64,000 nucleotides of DNA from an uncultured archaeon (GTDB lineage: Archaea > Asgardarchaeota > Thorarchaeia > Thorarchaeales > Thorarchaeaceae), in contig CAYYQL010000002.1 of the NCBI GenBank assembly GCA_964473825.1, forward strand, positions 96,001 to 160,000. The letters run 5' to 3'. The notes beneath the pieces are model-generated. The model was not told where the DNA came from and ran no database searches. It saw only the letters and a list, made by a program, of their open reading frames with translations. Numbering within the stretch: the stretch's first letter is position 1; every line of letters begins with the position of its first letter. The position numbers and the translations under genes were made by a program. Below, piece by piece: positions 13,817-21,410 of the stretch.

Positions 13817-15589
13817 ATGCTAACATTAGAAGAAACGATTCAGCTCATTTTAGAGAATTCTCCTGAATATGAGAGAAAGGACATCATGAAGATGATCGAA
13901 GAGAAGAGACAAGAGCTGGGTCCCGAGGTTGTTAACGAGGAGTCTGCCGCTATGATAGTAGCTCGCGAGCTTGGAGTGGACCTCCAACAGGTCTCTGCTA
14001 GGGCGCGGATGAAGATTGAGGACATAACCGAATCGACAAGAAACGTAGCTTTGACTGCAAAAGTAGTTGGCGTAAGTGGTGTTCGGACTTTCTCAAGGTC
14101 TGATGGTGGGGAGGGCAAGGTGGCAAGCATTACGATTGCAGATAGTACCGGAAGGATGAGAGTAGCCCTGTGGGATGATATGACCGGAGCTGTTTCTGAT
14201 GAGGTTGTTTCGGTTGGGAGTATTGTTCAGATTCGTAATGCATACGTCAAGAAGGGGCTAAGAGATTCGCTTGAGCTTAACCTTGGAAGAATGGGCAATT
14301 TACGAGTGTTGGAGGACTACGAGCTAGACGATCTGGACATAGAGATTCCTGAGGGAGAGATGACAAGCATCTCGGATCTTGAAGAGAATATGTATGATAT
14401 TAGTATCAGATTTCAGGTTCAACGAGCATTTCCACTCAGTACATTCACACGGAAATCTGACGGTAGCGAAGGAAAAGTTCTGAGTGTGATTGGAGCTGAC
14501 GAAAGCGGGAGTACAAGAGTCACGTTTTGGGATGGGCATGCAGAACAGATGAAAGATGTAAGAGAAGGAGAGGTCATTCATCTTTCCGGCGCCTATACAA
14601 GGGCTGGAAGGTATGGAGATGTTGAAGTTCATTCCGGTAGGTCAGCGATAATCGAAAGAAACATCGATGAAGAGATTGATGCAGTTGAAGTTCAGGGTTT
14701 CGGAGCAACAACTAGTGAGCCCTTGGGCCGAAAGAACATCGATAATCTGACGGTTGAGATGCGTGATGTGGATATTGAAGGGAAGATTATCAGAATCTTC
14801 CCGCCAAATGAATTTGAAAGGGATGGCAGCAAAGGACGCGTTCAGAATCTAATGGTTGCAGATAGCACTGGTACAATTAGAATGACCTTCTGGAATGAAG
14901 ACGTTGATAAGATAGCAGACCTGAAGGAGGGAGAGGTAGTTCGTGTTCGCCACGGGTATGTCCGAGAGGGCTTTCGTGGAGGAGTTGAATTCCATGCCGG
15001 ACGAAGGAGCGAGATAGAGGTGAATCCCAAGGATTCCACACTGCAAGATCTCGATCTATCGGACGTTTCGGTTAGACCGACGACGAGGGCTAATCGAACC
15101 ATGATTGGTGATATCGATGAAGCCATGGTCCAGAAGATTGTCGAAATCTATGGCAATATCGTGAAGGTCTTTGAAAGTCGACCCGTTTATCCTGCCTGTC
15201 CTGATTGCCGTAAGAAGGTCGAAGTGGTGGAGGGAGGTCATAGATGTGATGTTCATGGTGACATTAAGGATGTGGAATACAGGACGTTGTTTAAGGTGGT
15301 TCTAGACGATGAAACCGGTTCAATTACTGTCACCCTCTTTGGAGAGGCGGGGGAGAAACTGCTTGACATGTCTGCAAATGAGGCCCAGAAACTCATCGAG
15401 AAGACGGGTAATGTCACCGAACCGATTGACTTAGCCTGGCCGAAGATTCAAGGACAAGACGTCGTAATCCAGGGGAGGGTGTCGATGTTCAGAAAATCGC
15501 TAGATATCACGGCGATTTCTTTGGAGTTCCCCGATCGTCTACAGGAAATAGCTCGACAGAAGGATGAGATTGAGAAGCTCATCAGCTAG
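13817..15589 (+). CDS. rpa: Replication protein A large subunit (multi-OB-fold with Zn finger)
   Basis: Four repeated D.TG..R..(F/L)W-type OB folds; ACPDC...C..H Zn site. Confidence 0.9.
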   Translation: MLTLEETIQLILENSPEYERKDIMKMIEEKRQELGPEVVNEESAAMIVARELGVDLQQVSARARMKIEDITESTRNVALTAKVVGVSGVRTFSRSDGGEGKVASITIADSTGRMRVALWDDMTGAVSDEVVSVGSIVQIRNAYVKKGLRDSLELNLGRMGNLRVLEDYELDDLDIEIPEGEMTSISDLEENMYDISIRFQVQRAFPLSTFTRKSDGSEGKVLSVIGADESGSTRVTFWDGHAEQMKDVREGEVIHLSGAYTRAGRYGDVEVHSGRSAIIERNIDEEIDAVEVQGFGATTSEPLGRKNIDNLTVEMRDVDIEGKIIRIFPPNEFERDGSKGRVQNLMVADSTGTIRMTFWNEDVDKIADLKEGEVVRVRHGYVREGFRGGVEFHAGRRSEIEVNPKDSTLQDLDLSDVSVRPTTRANRTMIGDIDEAMVQKIVEIYGNIVKVFESRPVYPACPDCRKKVEVVEGGHRCDVHGDIKDVEYRTLFKVVLDDETGSITVTLFGEAGEKLLDMSANEAQKLIEKTGNVTEPIDLAWPKIQGQDVVIQGRVSMFRKSLDITAISLEFPDRLQEIARQKDEIEKLIS

Positions 15590-15690
15590 ATAGGCACATA
15601 TCAGGGTACACCAACAGAAACCAAAGTTGGACATATAGTAGATAATAGTGAGGACAATGGGAGAACATCAGAGTGGGGTCTAAATGCTCT

Positions 15691-15875
15691 GTTCCTGATA
15701 ATAATCTGTTTCTTACAGTTTGGTGAGTGAGCCTCCCCTGTAAGAGACTTCTGCGTTCCACCTCTCCTCTGCCAGCGTCCAGAGCGGGATGTCAGCAAGG
15801 GGGAATCTTACATATATCTGATACTCTTGTCTGACAGATTAACTAGGAAAAGGGGGTATTTTCATTATCCCTGAA
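15691..15875 (-). repeat. Copy 1 of ~180-bp non-coding repeat (inverted relative to 17988-18162)
   Basis: Reverse complement aligns to 17988-18162 with 7 substitutions, one 11-nt indel and one 1-nt indel (hand alignment). Confidence 0.95.
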
Positions 15876-15946
15876 CTCTCATCTGGAAACCGCACTGGGG
15901 GAACAACTCTCTGGTGTCAAAGATTGTGCAACATACAATGAACGGT

Positions 15947-17188
15947 TCAAGAGCTCATATGTATCAGTTTGCTAAGACCGGTGAGAAAACGGTCTACATC
16001 TTCTGTGTTATTGTAGATATAGAAGCTGGCTCGGACTGAACCGTTCTCGGGATTGAGTCCCAGCTGATAATGAAATGGACCTGCACAGTGCCACCCGCTT
16101 CTCACCATCACACCGAATTCTGTGTCAAGGAAGGTAGCGACATCATGAGCAGACTGTACGGTATCCACTGTAAAGGTAACAAGACCAGTTCTGATGGTAA
16201 TATCGCTGGTTCCGATTATGTGCACATTCTCCATACTCAGGAGCTTCTCAAGAGCATGAGATAGCAGGGTCTTTTCACGTTTCTCAATTTCCTTCATTCC
16301 GATTGCTTGAAGATACTCAGCGGCGGCTCCCGCACCGATGGCACCAGCATAATTCTGAAGACCTGCCTCGAACTTCTCTGGAGGGGGCAAATATTCTGGA
16401 ATAATCTGCCCGTTTTCGAACCGTACATCTGCAACGGTATCGCCTCCAGTTAGAAACATGTCCATCTCGCTGAGAAGACTTGACTTCCCGTATAGAAGGC
16501 CCATGCCCGAAGGCCCACACATTTTGTGTACTGATATGGCGGAGAAGTCAACATCCGAGGCTTGGACATCCATGGGATGATGAGGAGCGTACTGGGCATC
16601 GTCAGAGAGAACAAGAGCCCCCTGATCATGGGCTAATTCGGTGATCGCCTCCAAAGGAGCAACAGTTCCTGTGACATTGGAAGAGTGAACAACCGACACC
16701 ATACGCGTATCGTGGTCGATTGCCTCTTTCCATGCTTCAATGTCGAACGTGCCATCTGATTCCGCCTTGACGATCTCAACCCTCAGATTATCTCGTCTGG
16801 CACGTTCCACAAAGGGCAGCGAACCGCTATGGTGCTCCAATGTTGTTGTGACAATCTTTGATCCTGCAGGAATTTTCACAGATCGAGCTACTATGTTTAT
16901 CGATTCGGTTGCATTCCGGGTCCAAATACATTCATGGGGGCTGTCTGCATTGATAAATTCCGCAAACTTCTCCCTTGCTCTGGCATACGCTTCAGAAACC
17001 TCCTTTCCAAAGGTATGAATGCTCCGACCCCCACAGGCGGGATACCTCTCGTAGTATTCGTTCATGGCATCAATAACCCGCCGTGGCTTCAGTGCCATAC
17101 AGGCACTGTCAAGATAGACAGGATTGTGTCCATTTATGGTTCTCTTCAGTGCTGGGAAATCATTGCGGATTCTGTTCCAGTCGACCAC
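15947..17188 (-). CDS. sufS: Group II cysteine desulfurase
   Basis: YLDSA, EHHS, D.AQ, PLP lysine in S.HKM.GP, FEAG, catalytic RSGWHCA. Confidence 0.9.
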   Translation of the reverse strand: MVDWNRIRNDFPALKRTINGHNPVYLDSACMALKPRRVIDAMNEYYERYPACGGRSIHTFGKEVSEAYARAREKFAEFINADSPHECIWTRNATESINIVARSVKIPAGSKIVTTTLEHHSGSLPFVERARRDNLRVEIVKAESDGTFDIEAWKEAIDHDTRMVSVVHSSNVTGTVAPLEAITELAHDQGALVLSDDAQYAPHHPMDVQASDVDFSAISVHKMCGPSGMGLLYGKSSLLSEMDMFLTGGDTVADVRFENGQIIPEYLPPPEKFEAGLQNYAGAIGAGAAAEYLQAIGMKEIEKREKTLLSHALEKLLSMENVHIIGTSDITIRTGLVTFTVDTVQSAHDVATFLDTEFGVMVRSGWHCAGPFHYQLGLNPENGSVRASFYIYNNTEDVDRFLTGLSKLIHMSS

Positions 17189-17190
17189 GG

Positions 17191-17424
17191 CTATTTCCTC
17201 GTCAATTGCCAGCGATAGCCACCCTTGCCAAATTCTCTGGTTACAAGTCCTCTGTCGACCAGTTGGTTGGCAGCTGCCACAAAAGCATCACCACCAGCAC
17301 AGTCCGAACAGAGCTCCGCATACTGAGCGCTTTGTGCATACTTGAGTATCTCCGAAGTTGTTAGAGAGCCGGCATCTTCCAGTATCGTGAGAACACATCT
17401 CGCATTTGCTGTGAGGGTTGACAT
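17191..17424 (-). CDS. Small winged-helix protein with CxxC, directly upstream of sufS
   Basis: L..L...G.LTT.EI ... L..RGLV.R......Y.W wHTH pattern with inserted CSDC. Confidence 0.7.
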   Translation of the reverse strand: MSTLTANARCVLTILEDAGSLTTSEILKYAQSAQYAELCSDCAGGDAFVAAANQLVDRGLVTREFGKGGYRWQLTRK

Positions 17425-17720
17425 CAATTTCGGCTCGGCGAGAAGGACAATATGAAGGCTTCTATCGAGTATCTGTGGATTATTCTTAACGGCTCTGTGT
17501 GAAAAGTCGACGAAAGGACAAGAATTAGAAACATTCACACTATACCGTGCACGAATCTCAAAGGCGTCATCGCTTTTTGTGACCGTAATAATTCATGGTT
17601 GATGAGTTTTCACACAGCGCCATTCTTAACAAAATGCTTAAAACGGCTCCACCATGGAGCAGCTTGCTCTCTTTCTATCAGGGCTAGGCTCTGTTGTGAG
17701 AAAAGACAAGGTGGTTCGTT

Positions 17721-17972
17721 ATGGGACGAAGACGCAGACAGAAGGTTAGCAGAAGGCCAAGGAAGAGGATTCCCGATGTCTATCCATGTCCAGACTGTGG
17801 AAACACAGCGATTAAGATAGAGCTCTACCGGAAGAATGCGATGGCCATGGTTAAATGCGGATCTTGCGGCCTTGAGATGACCATAGAAGATGTCAATGAG
17901 CTGACAGAACCCGTTGATATCTATGGCAGCTTCATAGATGAGTTCTATGAACAAAGGAAGGCAGAAGCATAG
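17721..17972 (+). CDS. elf1: Transcription elongation factor Elf1
   Basis: Basic MGRRRR N-terminus, CPDC...CGSC, EPVDIY..FID. Confidence 0.92.
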   Translation: MGRRRRQKVSRRPRKRIPDVYPCPDCGNTAIKIELYRKNAMAMVKCGSCGLEMTIEDVNELTEPVDIYGSFIDEFYEQRKAEA

Positions 17973-17987
17973 ATACGTTCCTTGTAA

Positions 17988-18162
17988 TTCAGGAGTAATG
18001 AAAATACCCCCTTTTCCTAGTTAATCTGTCAGACAAAAGTGTAAGATTCCCCCCTTGCTGACATCTTGCTCTAGACGCTGGCAGAGGAGGGGTGGAACGC
18101 AGAAGTCTCTTACAGGGGAGGCTCACTCACCAAACTGTAAGAAACAGATTATTATCAGGAAC
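17988..18162 (+). repeat. Copy 2 of ~180-bp non-coding repeat
   Basis: See copy 1; starts 16 nt after the elf1 stop. Confidence 0.95.
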
Positions 18163-18200
18163 GATTATAAGCCAGATTCTTTGGAGGAAACACGATTCAC

Positions 18201-18317
18201 ATGCAAGCCAATTTGTACACTCAGATAATTGGACTCGTTCTAACAGGGTTCGGAATTCTTGCCCTACTACTGAGCCTGATTTATACTGTTTATGGTGATG
18301 ATGAACCCGAAGAATAG
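18201..18317 (+). CDS. 38-aa single-pass membrane peptide (MQANLYTQIIGLVLTGFGILALLLSLIYTVYGDDEPEE)
   Basis: ATG preceded by GGAGGA; one clean hydrophobic helix and an acidic tail; below the ORF-track cutoff. Confidence 0.5.
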   Translation: MQANLYTQIIGLVLTGFGILALLLSLIYTVYGDDEPEE

Positions 18318-18572
18318 CGCGATAAGGGTCTCGCATAGATGACAGACTCGCACACTCAATCACTAGAGTAACAGACAGTTCCTTCCCAAAGACTTCTTTT
18401 CCTCACTGCTGGAGCTAGCAGAAAATCAAAGCGAAGCTTGCCTGGGTTTGTAAGACCCGGAAGACAGCAGTATGGATAACAAGAGATGATAAGCACGGAG
18501 ATGCCGCTGTGAGAAGGGATATCCGCATCTTGATTAAGAAGACCCGGCACGTGTTGATGGGGACAACTTGAT

Positions 18573-21410
18573 ATGGATGCCTTCGATTTGCTTGACAGAA
18601 AGATAACAGACTTCCTGTCCGAAAATGGCATTACATCTCCCACTCCCATTCAGAAAGAAGCAATTCCGCAGATTCTAAAGGGAGAGGAGAACTCTCTACT
18701 TCTGGCCCCAACGGGAAGTGGAAAGACGGAGGCTGCAGTGCTTCCTCTTCTGAACAGACTGAATGAGATGCGCCACAGAAAGGAGCTCTTCGGCTTCTAT
18801 GTACTCTATGTGACTCCTCTAAGAGCATTGAATAGAGACGTCTTCAAGCGAATCGAAGGTCTATGTGAACACTTGGATCTATCAGTTCAGGTAAGGCATG
18901 GTGATACAACCTCGTATCGAAGGAGAAAGCAAGCTATATCCCCTCCGAATCTCCTCATTACCACTCCTGAAACACTCCAAGCCATTCTCCCAGGTAAGCG
19001 ACTCCGATATCATCTCAAGACTGTCTTTGCTGTAGTGGTGGATGAGATACACGAACTTGCTGATAGTAAGAGAGGGACACAGCTTAGCATAGGGCTTGAC
19101 AGGTTAGAAAGGCTGGTTGGGAAAAGGATTCAAAGGATAGGGCTCTCAGCTACAGTGGGCAACCCTGACGACGTGGCTGCGCTCTTGTCAGGTCCTAAAA
19201 GGCACGTCAGAAAGATATGGGCCGGTTATGATGCTCGCCAGATGCAACTGGATGTCGTATTACCACAACCAACTGATGGCGATAGTGGGGTTGCACGGCG
19301 CTTGCATTATCCTCCATATTCGACCGCTCGGCTTAGATACATAGTTGAACAGATTGCCAATCATAAATCTACAATAGTGTTTACTAACACGAGGGCTTTT
19401 GCAGAGATTCTCGGGTCAAAGATGAGAGGGCTGAGTCCGCCGTTTGAGTTTGATGTTCACCATGGATCGCTCTCAAAAGATGTGCGCCTCGCTGCAGAAG
19501 ATAGACTCAAGGATGGCATTTCGAAGGCCATTGTGGCAACATCGAGTCTTGAGCTTGGTATCGATATCGGGCAGGCCGATCTTGTCATCCAATATAGTTC
19601 TCCAAGAGAAGTCAGGCGTGCATTACAGAGAACTGGGCGCGCAGGACATGGAATAGGACGAGTGGCAAAAGGGCTGTTCATTGCAACAGCTAACCTAGAT
19701 GATATTACTGAGTCTGCAGTCATAGTGCGTAGAGCACTCTCAAACAAAGTAGAACCAGCAGCAATCCCGGAGAAATCTTGGGATGTTCTATGTCATCAGA
19801 TTGCCGGTGTGTTATTGGATGAAGACAGCTTGAGTCTTGACGAGTTGCACAGTCGCATTCAGGTGTCTTATCCCTTCAGAGATACTACTCGTGAGGAACT
19901 AAAGCGGTTATTAGATTTCATGATAGACAGGAAGCTGGTCAAGAGAGTGGGGACAGCAATTGAACGTTGGGGAAAAACTCGGATCTTCTATTATGAGAGG
20001 TTGAGTACGATTCCGGATGTCCATCAGGTAACTGCGGTCGACATAAGCTCTAGAACGGGAATTGGAGTGCTTGATGAGGATTATGTGTCTGAGAACATAG
20101 GGCCTGGATCTCTATTTGTTATCCGCGGCAGACCGTATAGAGTCGTAAGCATAGAAGAAGATGAGGTTCTATGTGCCCCTGCTGGAGAAGAGGACAGTGA
20201 TGCTCCACGTTGGATTGGTGAGATGATACCCGTTCCGTTTGAAGTTGCTACTGAGGTGGCAGATGTCTGGGGCAGAGTAGGACGAATGGGAAGAAAACAC
20301 ATCGCTTCTTGGTTGACACAACAATACAGGATGTCGGATGCCGCTCAGAAGCATCTCATTGACATGGTGGACAAGAGCATAGAGGCGCTTGGAACACTCT
20401 CCTCCGCGGACAGGATTGTTATCGAGGACTTTGGAGAGGGAATAGTCATCCATGCACCATATGGAACAAAGACGAATGAAACACTTGGAATTGTAGTTGC
20501 ATCTCTCTTGACCACAAGGAGTGGGGTAGATGTGGCGGTTGAACAAGACCCATATCGAATCTTACTCTCATCTTCAGAGAGGATAGATCCACAACATGTG
20601 GTGGATATATTCTCCGACTATGCTCCGTTGCAAGCTTCCACAGTTCTCAGACTGGCAATGAAGAACACACAGACTTTCTCGTCCCGATTTGTTCATGTAG
20701 CAAGACGAATGGATGTGATTCGCAGAGATGCCAAGCTTCGAGAGGTGCCCGTACGACTTCTTATTGCTATCTATGAAGAGACTCCCGTATTCGAGGAGGC
20801 AATGAGAGAGGTGATTGCGGATAAGATGGACGAGCGGCGTGCAATGGATGTATTCGATAAAGTACGGAGTGACAAGATCGAATTGCAAATAGTAAGAACA
20901 GCCGAACCTTCGCCTCTAGCCCGTCTGATAATCGAAGAGAGAACCCGGTTTGAAGTAATGGGGGAGATAACGGAGGAACACGAGGTGCTTCGAATGATGG
21001 AGGAGAGACTTATGTCAAGCAAATTCAGATTGCTATGTATTAATCGGCACTGGAACTCGGTCCGAACCATTTCAACCCTTGAAGACAAGGTCAGCTGCCC
21101 CGTCTGTGGGTCGAGAATGGTCTTGGCAATTCATCCATCACAGAAAGACCTAGAGAGAGTATTGACAAAGGTTTCAAAGGGAGAGAAGCTCTCTCCAGAT
21201 GAAGAGAAGGAATACAAAAGGGCGATGCTGTCAGCTTCCCTGGTTTCAGAGTACGGAAAGACTGCGCTCATGGTACTTGCGGGAAGAGGAATTGGGCCCA
21301 GTACTGCTTCACGTATACTGCGGCCGAGCCGTGTAACAAGAAGGGACTTGCTACAGGAGATAGCAAAGGCGGAGAAGATGTATGCAAGAACGCGACAATT
21401 CTGGGACTAA
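18573..21410 (+). CDS. lhr: Lhr-type SF2 helicase
   Basis: APTGSGKT, DEIH, SAT, HHGSL, LELGID, QRTGRAGH; C-terminal Zn finger/HhH. Confidence 0.93.
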   Translation: MDAFDLLDRKITDFLSENGITSPTPIQKEAIPQILKGEENSLLLAPTGSGKTEAAVLPLLNRLNEMRHRKELFGFYVLYVTPLRALNRDVFKRIEGLCEHLDLSVQVRHGDTTSYRRRKQAISPPNLLITTPETLQAILPGKRLRYHLKTVFAVVVDEIHELADSKRGTQLSIGLDRLERLVGKRIQRIGLSATVGNPDDVAALLSGPKRHVRKIWAGYDARQMQLDVVLPQPTDGDSGVARRLHYPPYSTARLRYIVEQIANHKSTIVFTNTRAFAEILGSKMRGLSPPFEFDVHHGSLSKDVRLAAEDRLKDGISKAIVATSSLELGIDIGQADLVIQYSSPREVRRALQRTGRAGHGIGRVAKGLFIATANLDDITESAVIVRRALSNKVEPAAIPEKSWDVLCHQIAGVLLDEDSLSLDELHSRIQVSYPFRDTTREELKRLLDFMIDRKLVKRVGTAIERWGKTRIFYYERLSTIPDVHQVTAVDISSRTGIGVLDEDYVSENIGPGSLFVIRGRPYRVVSIEEDEVLCAPAGEEDSDAPRWIGEMIPVPFEVATEVADVWGRVGRMGRKHIASWLTQQYRMSDAAQKHLIDMVDKSIEALGTLSSADRIVIEDFGEGIVIHAPYGTKTNETLGIVVASLLTTRSGVDVAVEQDPYRILLSSSERIDPQHVVDIFSDYAPLQASTVLRLAMKNTQTFSSRFVHVARRMDVIRRDAKLREVPVRLLIAIYEETPVFEEAMREVIADKMDERRAMDVFDKVRSDKIELQIVRTAEPSPLARLIIEERTRFEVMGEITEEHEVLRMMEERLMSSKFRLLCINRHWNSVRTISTLEDKVSCPVCGSRMVLAIHPSQKDLERVLTKVSKGEKLSPDEEKEYKRAMLSASLVSEYGKTALMVLAGRGIGPSTASRILRPSRVTRRDLLQEIAKAEKMYARTRQFWD

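Follow-up and report, generated by a model that had tools for sequence, protein, structure and literature searches.

Within a 64,000-nucleotide (nt) stretch of DNA from an uncultured archaeon of the family Thorarchaeaceae (contig CAYYQL010000002.1, positions 96,001 to 160,000; hereafter the window), a cassette containing a sufS-like gene and elf1 is bracketed by two copies of a short sequence arranged as inverted repeats. An earlier note on this DNA had proposed that the cassette is an invertible segment or, alternatively, that the repeats are two insertions of a non-autonomous element that targets 3' untranslated regions (UTRs). We are highly confident that the repeats are independent insertions of a protein-less mini-transposon, derived from a parent that encodes a Cas1-like protein and TnpB, and that they are not parts of a programmed switch. 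Three observations are demonstrated directly: integration at TCNNGA sites with a 6-base-pair (bp) duplication, presence or absence of copies at five sites, and ends that are common to the mini element, a 570-nt form and full-length elements.

The window's genome (G000) was compared with two genomes of the same genus (G001 and G002) and with more distant relatives. Positions given without a contig name are window positions; C numbers denote contigs.

Two separate insertions with target-site duplications

The inverted repeats extend over 15693-15874 and 17989-18160; their aligned bases agree at 96.9%, and the alignment contains 13 gap positions. A repeat search resolves them into outer arms (15691-15803 and 18050-18162, 113 nt, 96%) and inner arms (15816-15875 and 17988-18047, 60 nt, 92%), and pairwise alignment of the copies yields about 5-7 substitutions, one 1-nt indel and one 10-12-nt indel; the longest exact run common to both is 66 nt. 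The search and the alignment bear out the reverse-complement copies that had been described earlier. The mini-transposons and the sequences duplicated around them are as follows.

15699..15868, minus strand: left mini-transposon copy, 170 nt, with its left end at 15868 and its right end at 15699
15869..15874, minus strand: target duplication on the left-end side of the left copy, CCCTGA on the plus strand, matching its partner at five of six bases
15693..15698, minus strand: target duplication on the right-end side of the left copy, TCCTGA on the plus strand (TCAGGA in the sense of the element)
15806..15836, minus strand: three direct heptamers in the left end of the left copy (TGTCAGA, TATCAGA, TGTAAGA)
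17995..18154, plus strand: right mini-transposon copy, 160 nt, with one heptamer unit fewer than the left copy
17989..17994, plus strand: target duplication TCAGGA on the left-end side of the right copy
18155..18160, plus strand: target duplication TCAGGA on the right-end side of the right copy

The clearest evidence for insertion comes from the congeneric genomes. The whole region is present in G002 (contig C6) and in G001 (C73) in the same order and orientation, and neither window repeat is found there. The right site in G002 has the sequence ...GGTAT-TCAGGA-ACGATT..., and in the window TCAGGA is followed there by 160 nt and a second TCAGGA; at the left site the hexamer is likewise present once in G002. 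The direct TCAGG that had been noticed at both ends of each repeat is thus real and forms part of a 6-bp duplication, with the five-of-six match at the left copy. The corresponding sites of both relatives also lack three more G000 copies (at C3:118018, on C12 in a 570-nt form, and at C2:181076), so that precise presence or absence was seen for all five copies tested, the junction at C2:181076 being complex. Flanks at these empty sites are 87-93% identical in G002 and 74-82% identical in G001, and the C12 site shows a clean 6-bp duplication, TCCAGA.

Among 14 complete copies, the flanking hexamer is identical on both sides in eight and matches at five of six positions in three more. Near-identical sister copies carry different hexamers (TCAGGA, TCTGGA, TCTAGA, TCCAGA), and the consensus T-C-N-N-G-A is kept 3' of the right end across genera. 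Empty sites hold one such hexamer and occupied sites two. We conclude that the hexamer, with its variable centre, is copied from the target and is a true target-site duplication. Its variation among near-identical sisters rules out a fixed element end of the kind expected under the IS200/IS605 model, and variation of its central two bases likewise rules out the core-dinucleotide model of serine recombinases. Because each window copy has a duplication of its own, the two arrived independently.

Two further junctions have peculiar features. The empty counterpart of G000 C2:181076-181231, at about 16289-16297 of the G002:C20 locus, contains a stretch, TGACAGATAAAGATTAT, that resembles the right terminus of the element and might be a footprint of excision or what remains of an older copy. 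At G000 C3:118018-118203, the flank beside the duplication shares six further bases (CACTAC) with the left terminus of the element, either by chance or through a similarity between end and target.

A dispersed family without coding genes

A BLAST search with a 196-nt query recovered 16 matches in G000, several of them at contig ends. They include a copy on C3 that is 96% identical, copies on C2, C82 and C6 at 78-82%, and many partial matches where contigs end; the C3 copy and the two window copies resemble one another at about 96-97%. Matches were found in 12 of 41 related genomes, every one from the same taxonomic family, and no match was found among those 41 outside that family. In 11 of the 24 other genomes of the family there are matches to the first ~80 nt of the query. 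Numbers per relative are substantial, with 17 in G002, at least 20 in G013 and dozens in sister genera. Two copies and no empty sites would have argued against mobility; instead there are 16 matches together with empty alleles. With ~20 copies in 3.27 megabases, about 0.3 pairs within 2.5 kilobases (kb) are expected by chance, and the pairing of the window copies is therefore unremarkable.

As is characteristic of miniature transposons, these dispersed copies carry no coding gene: all open reading frames (ORFs) listed over the 160-170-nt bodies in the window are at most 65 amino acids (aa) long. The ends are asymmetric. The left end of each copy, ~80 nt, contains two or three direct heptamers (TGTCAGA or TGTAAGA), and a hairpin at the right end is built from the same heptamer; the heptamers are probably binding sites for the transposase. 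Terminal inverted repeats are lacking, the two ends sharing at most a TAAT-like match of 4-6 nt.

The G000 contigs also break inside copies of the family, at the start of C2 and on C33, C48, C51, C53, C57, C75, C76 and C84. The true copy number must consequently be above our count, and an intact parent with matching ends may be present and unassembled.

Ends and interior lead to a parent that carries tnpB

A longer member of the family connects the mini element to its presumed source. This 570-nt form, found at C12:26417-27014 and in related copies on C19 and C102, shares both of its ends with the mini element. Its interior can be aligned codon for codon to a TnpB-like gene of 561 aa on C6, over that gene's final ~105 codons, its stop codon and the sequence behind it; the gene matches the Pfam family Cas12f1-like_TNB (1.3e-11) and, weakly, OrfB_IS605. 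It follows that the window repeats have, in their right ~80-95 nt, the sequence that comes after the tnpB stop codon. The short form probably arose from the 570-nt form by a further deletion in its interior. In an 8.2-kb element on G001:C163, the left ~165 nt (region 989-1160 of that locus) resemble a complete mini element with a degenerate right-end module, which suggests alternatively that the short form may stem from the left end of the parent and not from a single internal deletion.

The parent is a unit of ~8 kb in Thorarchaeota, in which a giant gene (1,500-1,900 aa) lies head-to-head with a tnpB of ~570 aa. The giant genes form a multi-copy family encoding 1,400-1,900 aa. By coordinates, a giant gene lies beside a member of the ~570-aa TnpB clade (scored by matches to the C-terminal tail) at 21 loci in 17 genomes, and the head-to-head layout was seen at nine of the nine loci inspected by ORF layout. 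Only two large ORFs (at least 300 aa) are listed per element, PolB not having been searched for directly. A TnpB that is 75% identical is present in a record of a Candidatus Thorarchaeota archaeon, which places this clade in an Asgard host.

The best-defined parent is the 8.2-kb unit at G001:C163, which comprises left end, giant gene, tnpB and right-end module and has TCCAGA on both sides. Its left ~165 nt and its right-end module match the mini element, and the same site in G000 (C53) lacks the 8.2 kb and has a single TCCAAA. An autonomous partner with the same ends, for which the earlier note had recommended a search, is therefore at hand. A second full-length element, at G013:C28, is flanked by TCAGGA on both sides. 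A left end was sought next to the start of tnpB and was not found there, because it lies beyond the giant gene. All matches to TnpB and to the giant gene fall outside the window (C2:96001-160000). It is the parents, and not the window copies themselves, in which tnpB adjoins a gene for a giant Cas1 homologue.

Two variants of this theme were also seen. Many copies of the 570-nt form, in many genera, retain an uninterrupted frame of 102-136 codons for the TnpB C-terminus (G000 C12:26565-26888 and many loci in G055 and G059), which may reflect recent origin, constraint on an RNA scaffold, or a small protein. A second subfamily, represented in G000 at C2:67525-74538 and C26:26.4-33.3 kb, pairs TnpBs of 726-741 aa with giant genes; the regions downstream of these tnpB genes lack the GTTCACTCA module and abut tRNA genes.

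The right-end module probably belongs to a guide RNA scaffold

Guide RNAs of TnpB, called omega RNAs, end where the sequence 3' of the tnpB stop codon lies. The corresponding module is present in both window copies.

15699..15779, minus strand: omega-RNA-like module at the right end of the left copy; it includes hairpin arms at 15745-15738 and 15718-15711 and a CTCACTCAC motif
18074..18154, plus strand: omega-RNA-like module at the right end of the right copy; it includes hairpin arms at 18108-18115 and 18135-18142 and the motif at 18122-18130

Across 33 aligned modules, both window copies included, the sequence TCACTCA shows little or no variation. In a hand-made analysis of these 33 diverse modules, 81.8% of cells in the stem around TCACTCA are paired, compared with 35-48% when the partner strand is slid. 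Double changes occur in five pairs of this stem, and many pairs are G-U on the tnpB-sense strand. Such covariation, along with the G-U pairs, favours a structure formed by RNA (or by single-stranded DNA) of the tnpB-sense strand. As in known omega RNAs, the apparent structure occurs at the 3' end of tnpB and reaches the right end of the transposon, so that the module is probably the 3' part of a TnpB omega-RNA scaffold.

Automated methods did not detect this structure. A scan of 15000-19000 against Rfam gave no match at E <= 1, single-sequence folds of both strands were not clearly better than shuffles (z of -1.9 and -1.4), and RNAalifold returned no consensus over the 33 modules because the hairpin contains indels. 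The short form retains the last ~80-95 nt of the presumed scaffold and the 570-nt form ~430 nt. The retained module may still be transcribed and might possibly be bound by TnpB.

The giant protein is predicted to have a Cas1-like fold

For the N-terminal 375 residues of the giant protein, an AlphaFold model made with 14 homologues has a mean pLDDT of 78.7. When the model was compared with the PDB by VIA-align, the top 31 rows were all Cas1 or casposase structures (Z 8.4-12.8, with 143-198 aligned residues and root-mean-square deviations of 3.6-4.5 Å), after which scores drop to Z 4.9 and to unrelated helical designs. Foldseek E-values are weak, at 0.06 and above. A search with Pfam Cas_Cas1 recovers ordinary CRISPR Cas1 genes only, the giant gene not being among them. 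By its predicted fold only, then, the N-terminus of the giant protein is Cas1-like, and invariant Glu, His and Asp residues of this domain would fit the catalytic pattern of Cas1. If this protein acts in trans, it could make joins with a 6-bp stagger and so move the mini elements; joining with a stagger by a Cas1-family integrase would explain a duplication.

Weighing the alternatives

Several observations weigh against the descent and mechanism proposed here. No recognisable duplication was found at three of five full-length elements (G005:C42, G004:C37 and G059:C79). The G000 assembly holds no intact parent with near-identical ends, and the right end of the closest parent in that genome (C6:80.3-87.0 kb) is only ~65-68% identical to that of the 570-nt form. 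The giant protein gave no match in profile searches against Pfam, NCBIfam and the PDB, so that its assignment to Cas1 is that of a predicted fold. Finally, the short form is without the 5' two-thirds of the presumed RNA scaffold, and a working guide RNA may therefore not arise from it.

We nevertheless regard the competing explanations as far less satisfactory. The earlier note had suggested that recombination between the repeats flips the 2.1-kb cassette and thereby changes which transcript reads into an ORF of 38 aa just beyond the right copy. Two features would suit such a switch: the repeats are inverted and 160-170 nt long, with 66 nt identical in one run, and the right copy lies just 5' of a conserved small ORF. 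The repeats, however, belong to a dispersed family whose members have target duplications of their own. Cassette orientation is identical in G000 and in G001 and G002, which are free of the repeats, and the assembly contains one orientation only. The window contains no transposase or recombinase, as had been noted, and Pfam searches of G000 found no dedicated site-specific recombinase near the cassette; they give no serine-recombinase match in that genome, and its single Phage_integrase match (a tyrosine recombinase) is on another contig, C1. We therefore consider a recombinase-driven switch very improbable. Homologous recombination between the two copies, through the 66-nt exact run, could on rare occasions flip the segment, and there is no sign that this is put to use. 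A composite transposon that carries the cassette is ruled out, since the cassette is ancestral at this position.

Descent from tnpB, the absence of terminal inverted repeats and the subterminal hairpin all recall gene-less derivatives of IS607 or IS200/IS605 elements (the latter known as PATEs), which would be moved by a serine or a Y1 TnpA, and serine recombinases of ~200 aa do occur in 20 of 61 genomes of the taxonomic family. Nonetheless, neither Resolvase (PF00239) nor Y1_Tnp (PF01797) of Pfam has a match in G000, G001 or G002; G013, where the element is active or abundant, has no Resolvase and one Y1_Tnp match; and Y1_Tnp is found in only four of the 61 genomes. The six serine-recombinase loci that were inspected, all from other genera, adjoin genes without tblastn similarity to this TnpB clade. 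Moreover, passages of PMC6188088 describe these insertion-sequence families as making no target duplication, whereas here a 6-bp duplication with a variable centre is evident against empty sites; the right-end hexamer differs among sister copies and equals the left-end one, which is not what a fixed target without duplication would produce. Movement by either enzyme is in our judgement highly improbable.

No better placed is the idea of a host regulatory RNA gene or terminator family that was duplicated with its neighbourhood and merely resembles a transposon end. It would account for a conserved and covarying hairpin and for the fact that both copies lie 3' of a gene and share its sense. It does not account for precise presence or absence with target duplication at five sites, nor for copy positions that are not kept between congeneric genomes; the Rfam scan gave no match, and the module is continuous with the 3' ends of tnpB genes. 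An assembly artefact, in which a repeat was collapsed or misjoined in a metagenome bin, appears least probable of all. Although many contigs of this assembly end inside family copies, the two window copies differ by 5 substitutions and 13 gap positions, and the unique flanks of each are collinear with two other genomes.

On the mini-transposon reading, the inverted layout around the sufS-wHTH-elf1 segment (wHTH, winged helix-turn-helix) is a by-product of two hits in neighbouring intergenic regions. The part of the earlier proposal that stands is that of non-autonomous insertions, given the copy number, the empty sites, the duplications and the autonomous relative; no true preference for 3' UTRs was demonstrated, and the preference that can be measured is for TCNNGA.

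Comparison with known mobile elements

The closest known system is that of the Asgard aCas1-TnpB loci. The pertinent passages of Altae-Tran et al. 2023 (PMC10691335) describe such loci in two groups, Cas1H-Asgard-1 and Cas1H-Asgard-2, in which a variable stretch followed by GTTCACTCA lies downstream of tnpB; they already predict aCas1 to be a transposase and report that the loci are often flanked by repeats. Those passages give no ends, target, duplication length or gene-less derivatives. The family studied here agrees with these loci in its Asgard host and in the pairing of tnpB with a gene for a giant Cas1 homologue, and the variable stretch followed by GTTCACTCA is found downstream of its tnpB. 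It differs in that the window holds a gene-less derivative only, and in that the stretch termed hypervariable in those passages here behaves like the 5' arm of a covarying hairpin and not like a guide.

Other mobile elements share some of these features. Like casposons (PMC6977970, PMC4046053), this family has a presumed transposase of Cas1 fold and target-site duplications, and one of the best structural matches is to a casposase, 6opm (Z 12.0). Casposons, in contrast, have terminal inverted repeats, a PolB gene and duplications of 14-15 bp (PMC6977970), whereas in the present family the ends are asymmetric, only two large ORFs are listed with no PolB apparent, tnpB is accompanied by an RNA module, and the duplication is of 6 bp at TCNNGA. 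PATEs are comparably short, protein-less and multi-copy and preserve the guide-RNA region along with the transposon ends, which are likewise asymmetric and include a hairpin; they differ in needing a Y1 TnpA and leaving no duplication, while here the genome has no Y1 gene and a 6-bp duplication is made. IS607 elements, which have a serine TnpA and TnpB, also combine tnpB with a right-end RNA, lack terminal inverted repeats and have repeated subterminal motifs at both ends. No serine recombinase is tied to the present element, however, and IS607 makes no target duplication (PMC6188088). Classical miniature inverted-repeat transposable elements (MITEs) are similarly non-autonomous deletion derivatives with high copy number, target duplication, insertion polymorphism and often an intergenic location, but the elements described here have no terminal inverted repeats and carry a structured RNA module of an RNA-guided nuclease. 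Overall, the element behaves like a MITE or a PATE, fails the defining tests of IS607, IS200/IS605 and casposons, and belongs to the predicted Asgard aCas1-TnpB transposons.

Gene context and neighbouring insertions

The genes around and between the two copies are listed below.

13817-15589, plus strand: RPA-like OB-fold gene, left flank
15947-17188, minus strand: sufS-like class-V aminotransferase gene, between the copies
17191-17538 as listed, minus strand: ORF of 115 aa, between the copies
17721-17972, plus strand: elf1, between the copies
15947..17972, mixed strands: resident host genes between the copies (the sufS-like gene, the 115-aa ORF and elf1)
18201-18317: ORF of 38 aa, 3' of the right copy
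from 18573: Lhr-type helicase gene, right flank

The content of the cassette is as it had been described. Because gene order and orientation are identical in genomes free of the element, the sufS-like gene, the 115-aa ORF and elf1 are resident genes and not cargo. The left copy lies 72 nt 3' of the sufS stop codon and in the sense of sufS, and the right copy begins 23 nt 3' of the elf1 stop codon and in the sense of elf1, which agrees with the placement of each repeat behind a gene in the initial description. The duplicate that flanks the right copy stops 40 nt 5' of the conserved 38-aa ORF. This ORF (MQANLYTQIIG...) is hydrophobic and preceded by GGAGGA, and its version in G002 has one synonymous and one Tyr-to-Phe change. 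In relatives free of the element it follows elf1 by only ~60 nt, and the right mini-transposon now parts the two. The position of the right copy between elf1 and this conserved small ORF may alter the transcription of the latter.

Two other repeats occur in the same region. An unrelated third insertion of 131 nt at 17491-17621 (region 17482-17630) has terminal inverted repeats of ~20 nt and a perfect 9-bp duplication, ATTCTTAAC; there are six copies in the genome, 90-98% identical, and it is missing from the corresponding site in G001 and G002. Placed between the 115-aa ORF and elf1, in their divergent promoter region, it provides the GTG-start N-terminus of that ORF (17191-17538). A repeat of ~52 nt at the 3' end of sufS (15895-15950) matches this genome at 17 places, and G001 and G002 at many. 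It differs from the mini-transposons in occupying the same site in G002, and it is possibly terminator-like or an older mobile element.

Implications for Asgard Cas1-TnpB transposons

The window repeats are selfish, ordinary mobile DNA, and are best masked; to annotate them as RNA genes or a switch would be misleading. Knowledge of the Asgard Cas1-TnpB transposons comes from computational surveys only. We lean, though with only modest confidence, toward a broader interpretation, in which these predicted transposons acquire, from the mini elements and their 8-kb parents, their first concrete ends, TCNNGA target and 6-bp duplication, and the giant Cas1-family protein acts as a short-stagger transposase that also mobilises mini elements which bear an RNA module and are active in Thorarchaeota at present. 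Now that there are defined ends with a target consensus, a duplication of 6 bp, gene-less copies that were active recently and empty sites that are clean, the proposal that aCas1 is a transposase can be tested directly in vitro. Casposases make duplications of 14-15 bp, and CRISPR repeats are 25-50 bp long (PMC6977970); if the broader interpretation is true, the present family would add a third and much shorter spacing to the integration geometries of the Cas1 family, next to those of casposases and of CRISPR integrases. For work on the predicted Asgard Cas1-TnpB transposons the length of the duplication is a useful detail, and the gain for the field as a whole is modest.

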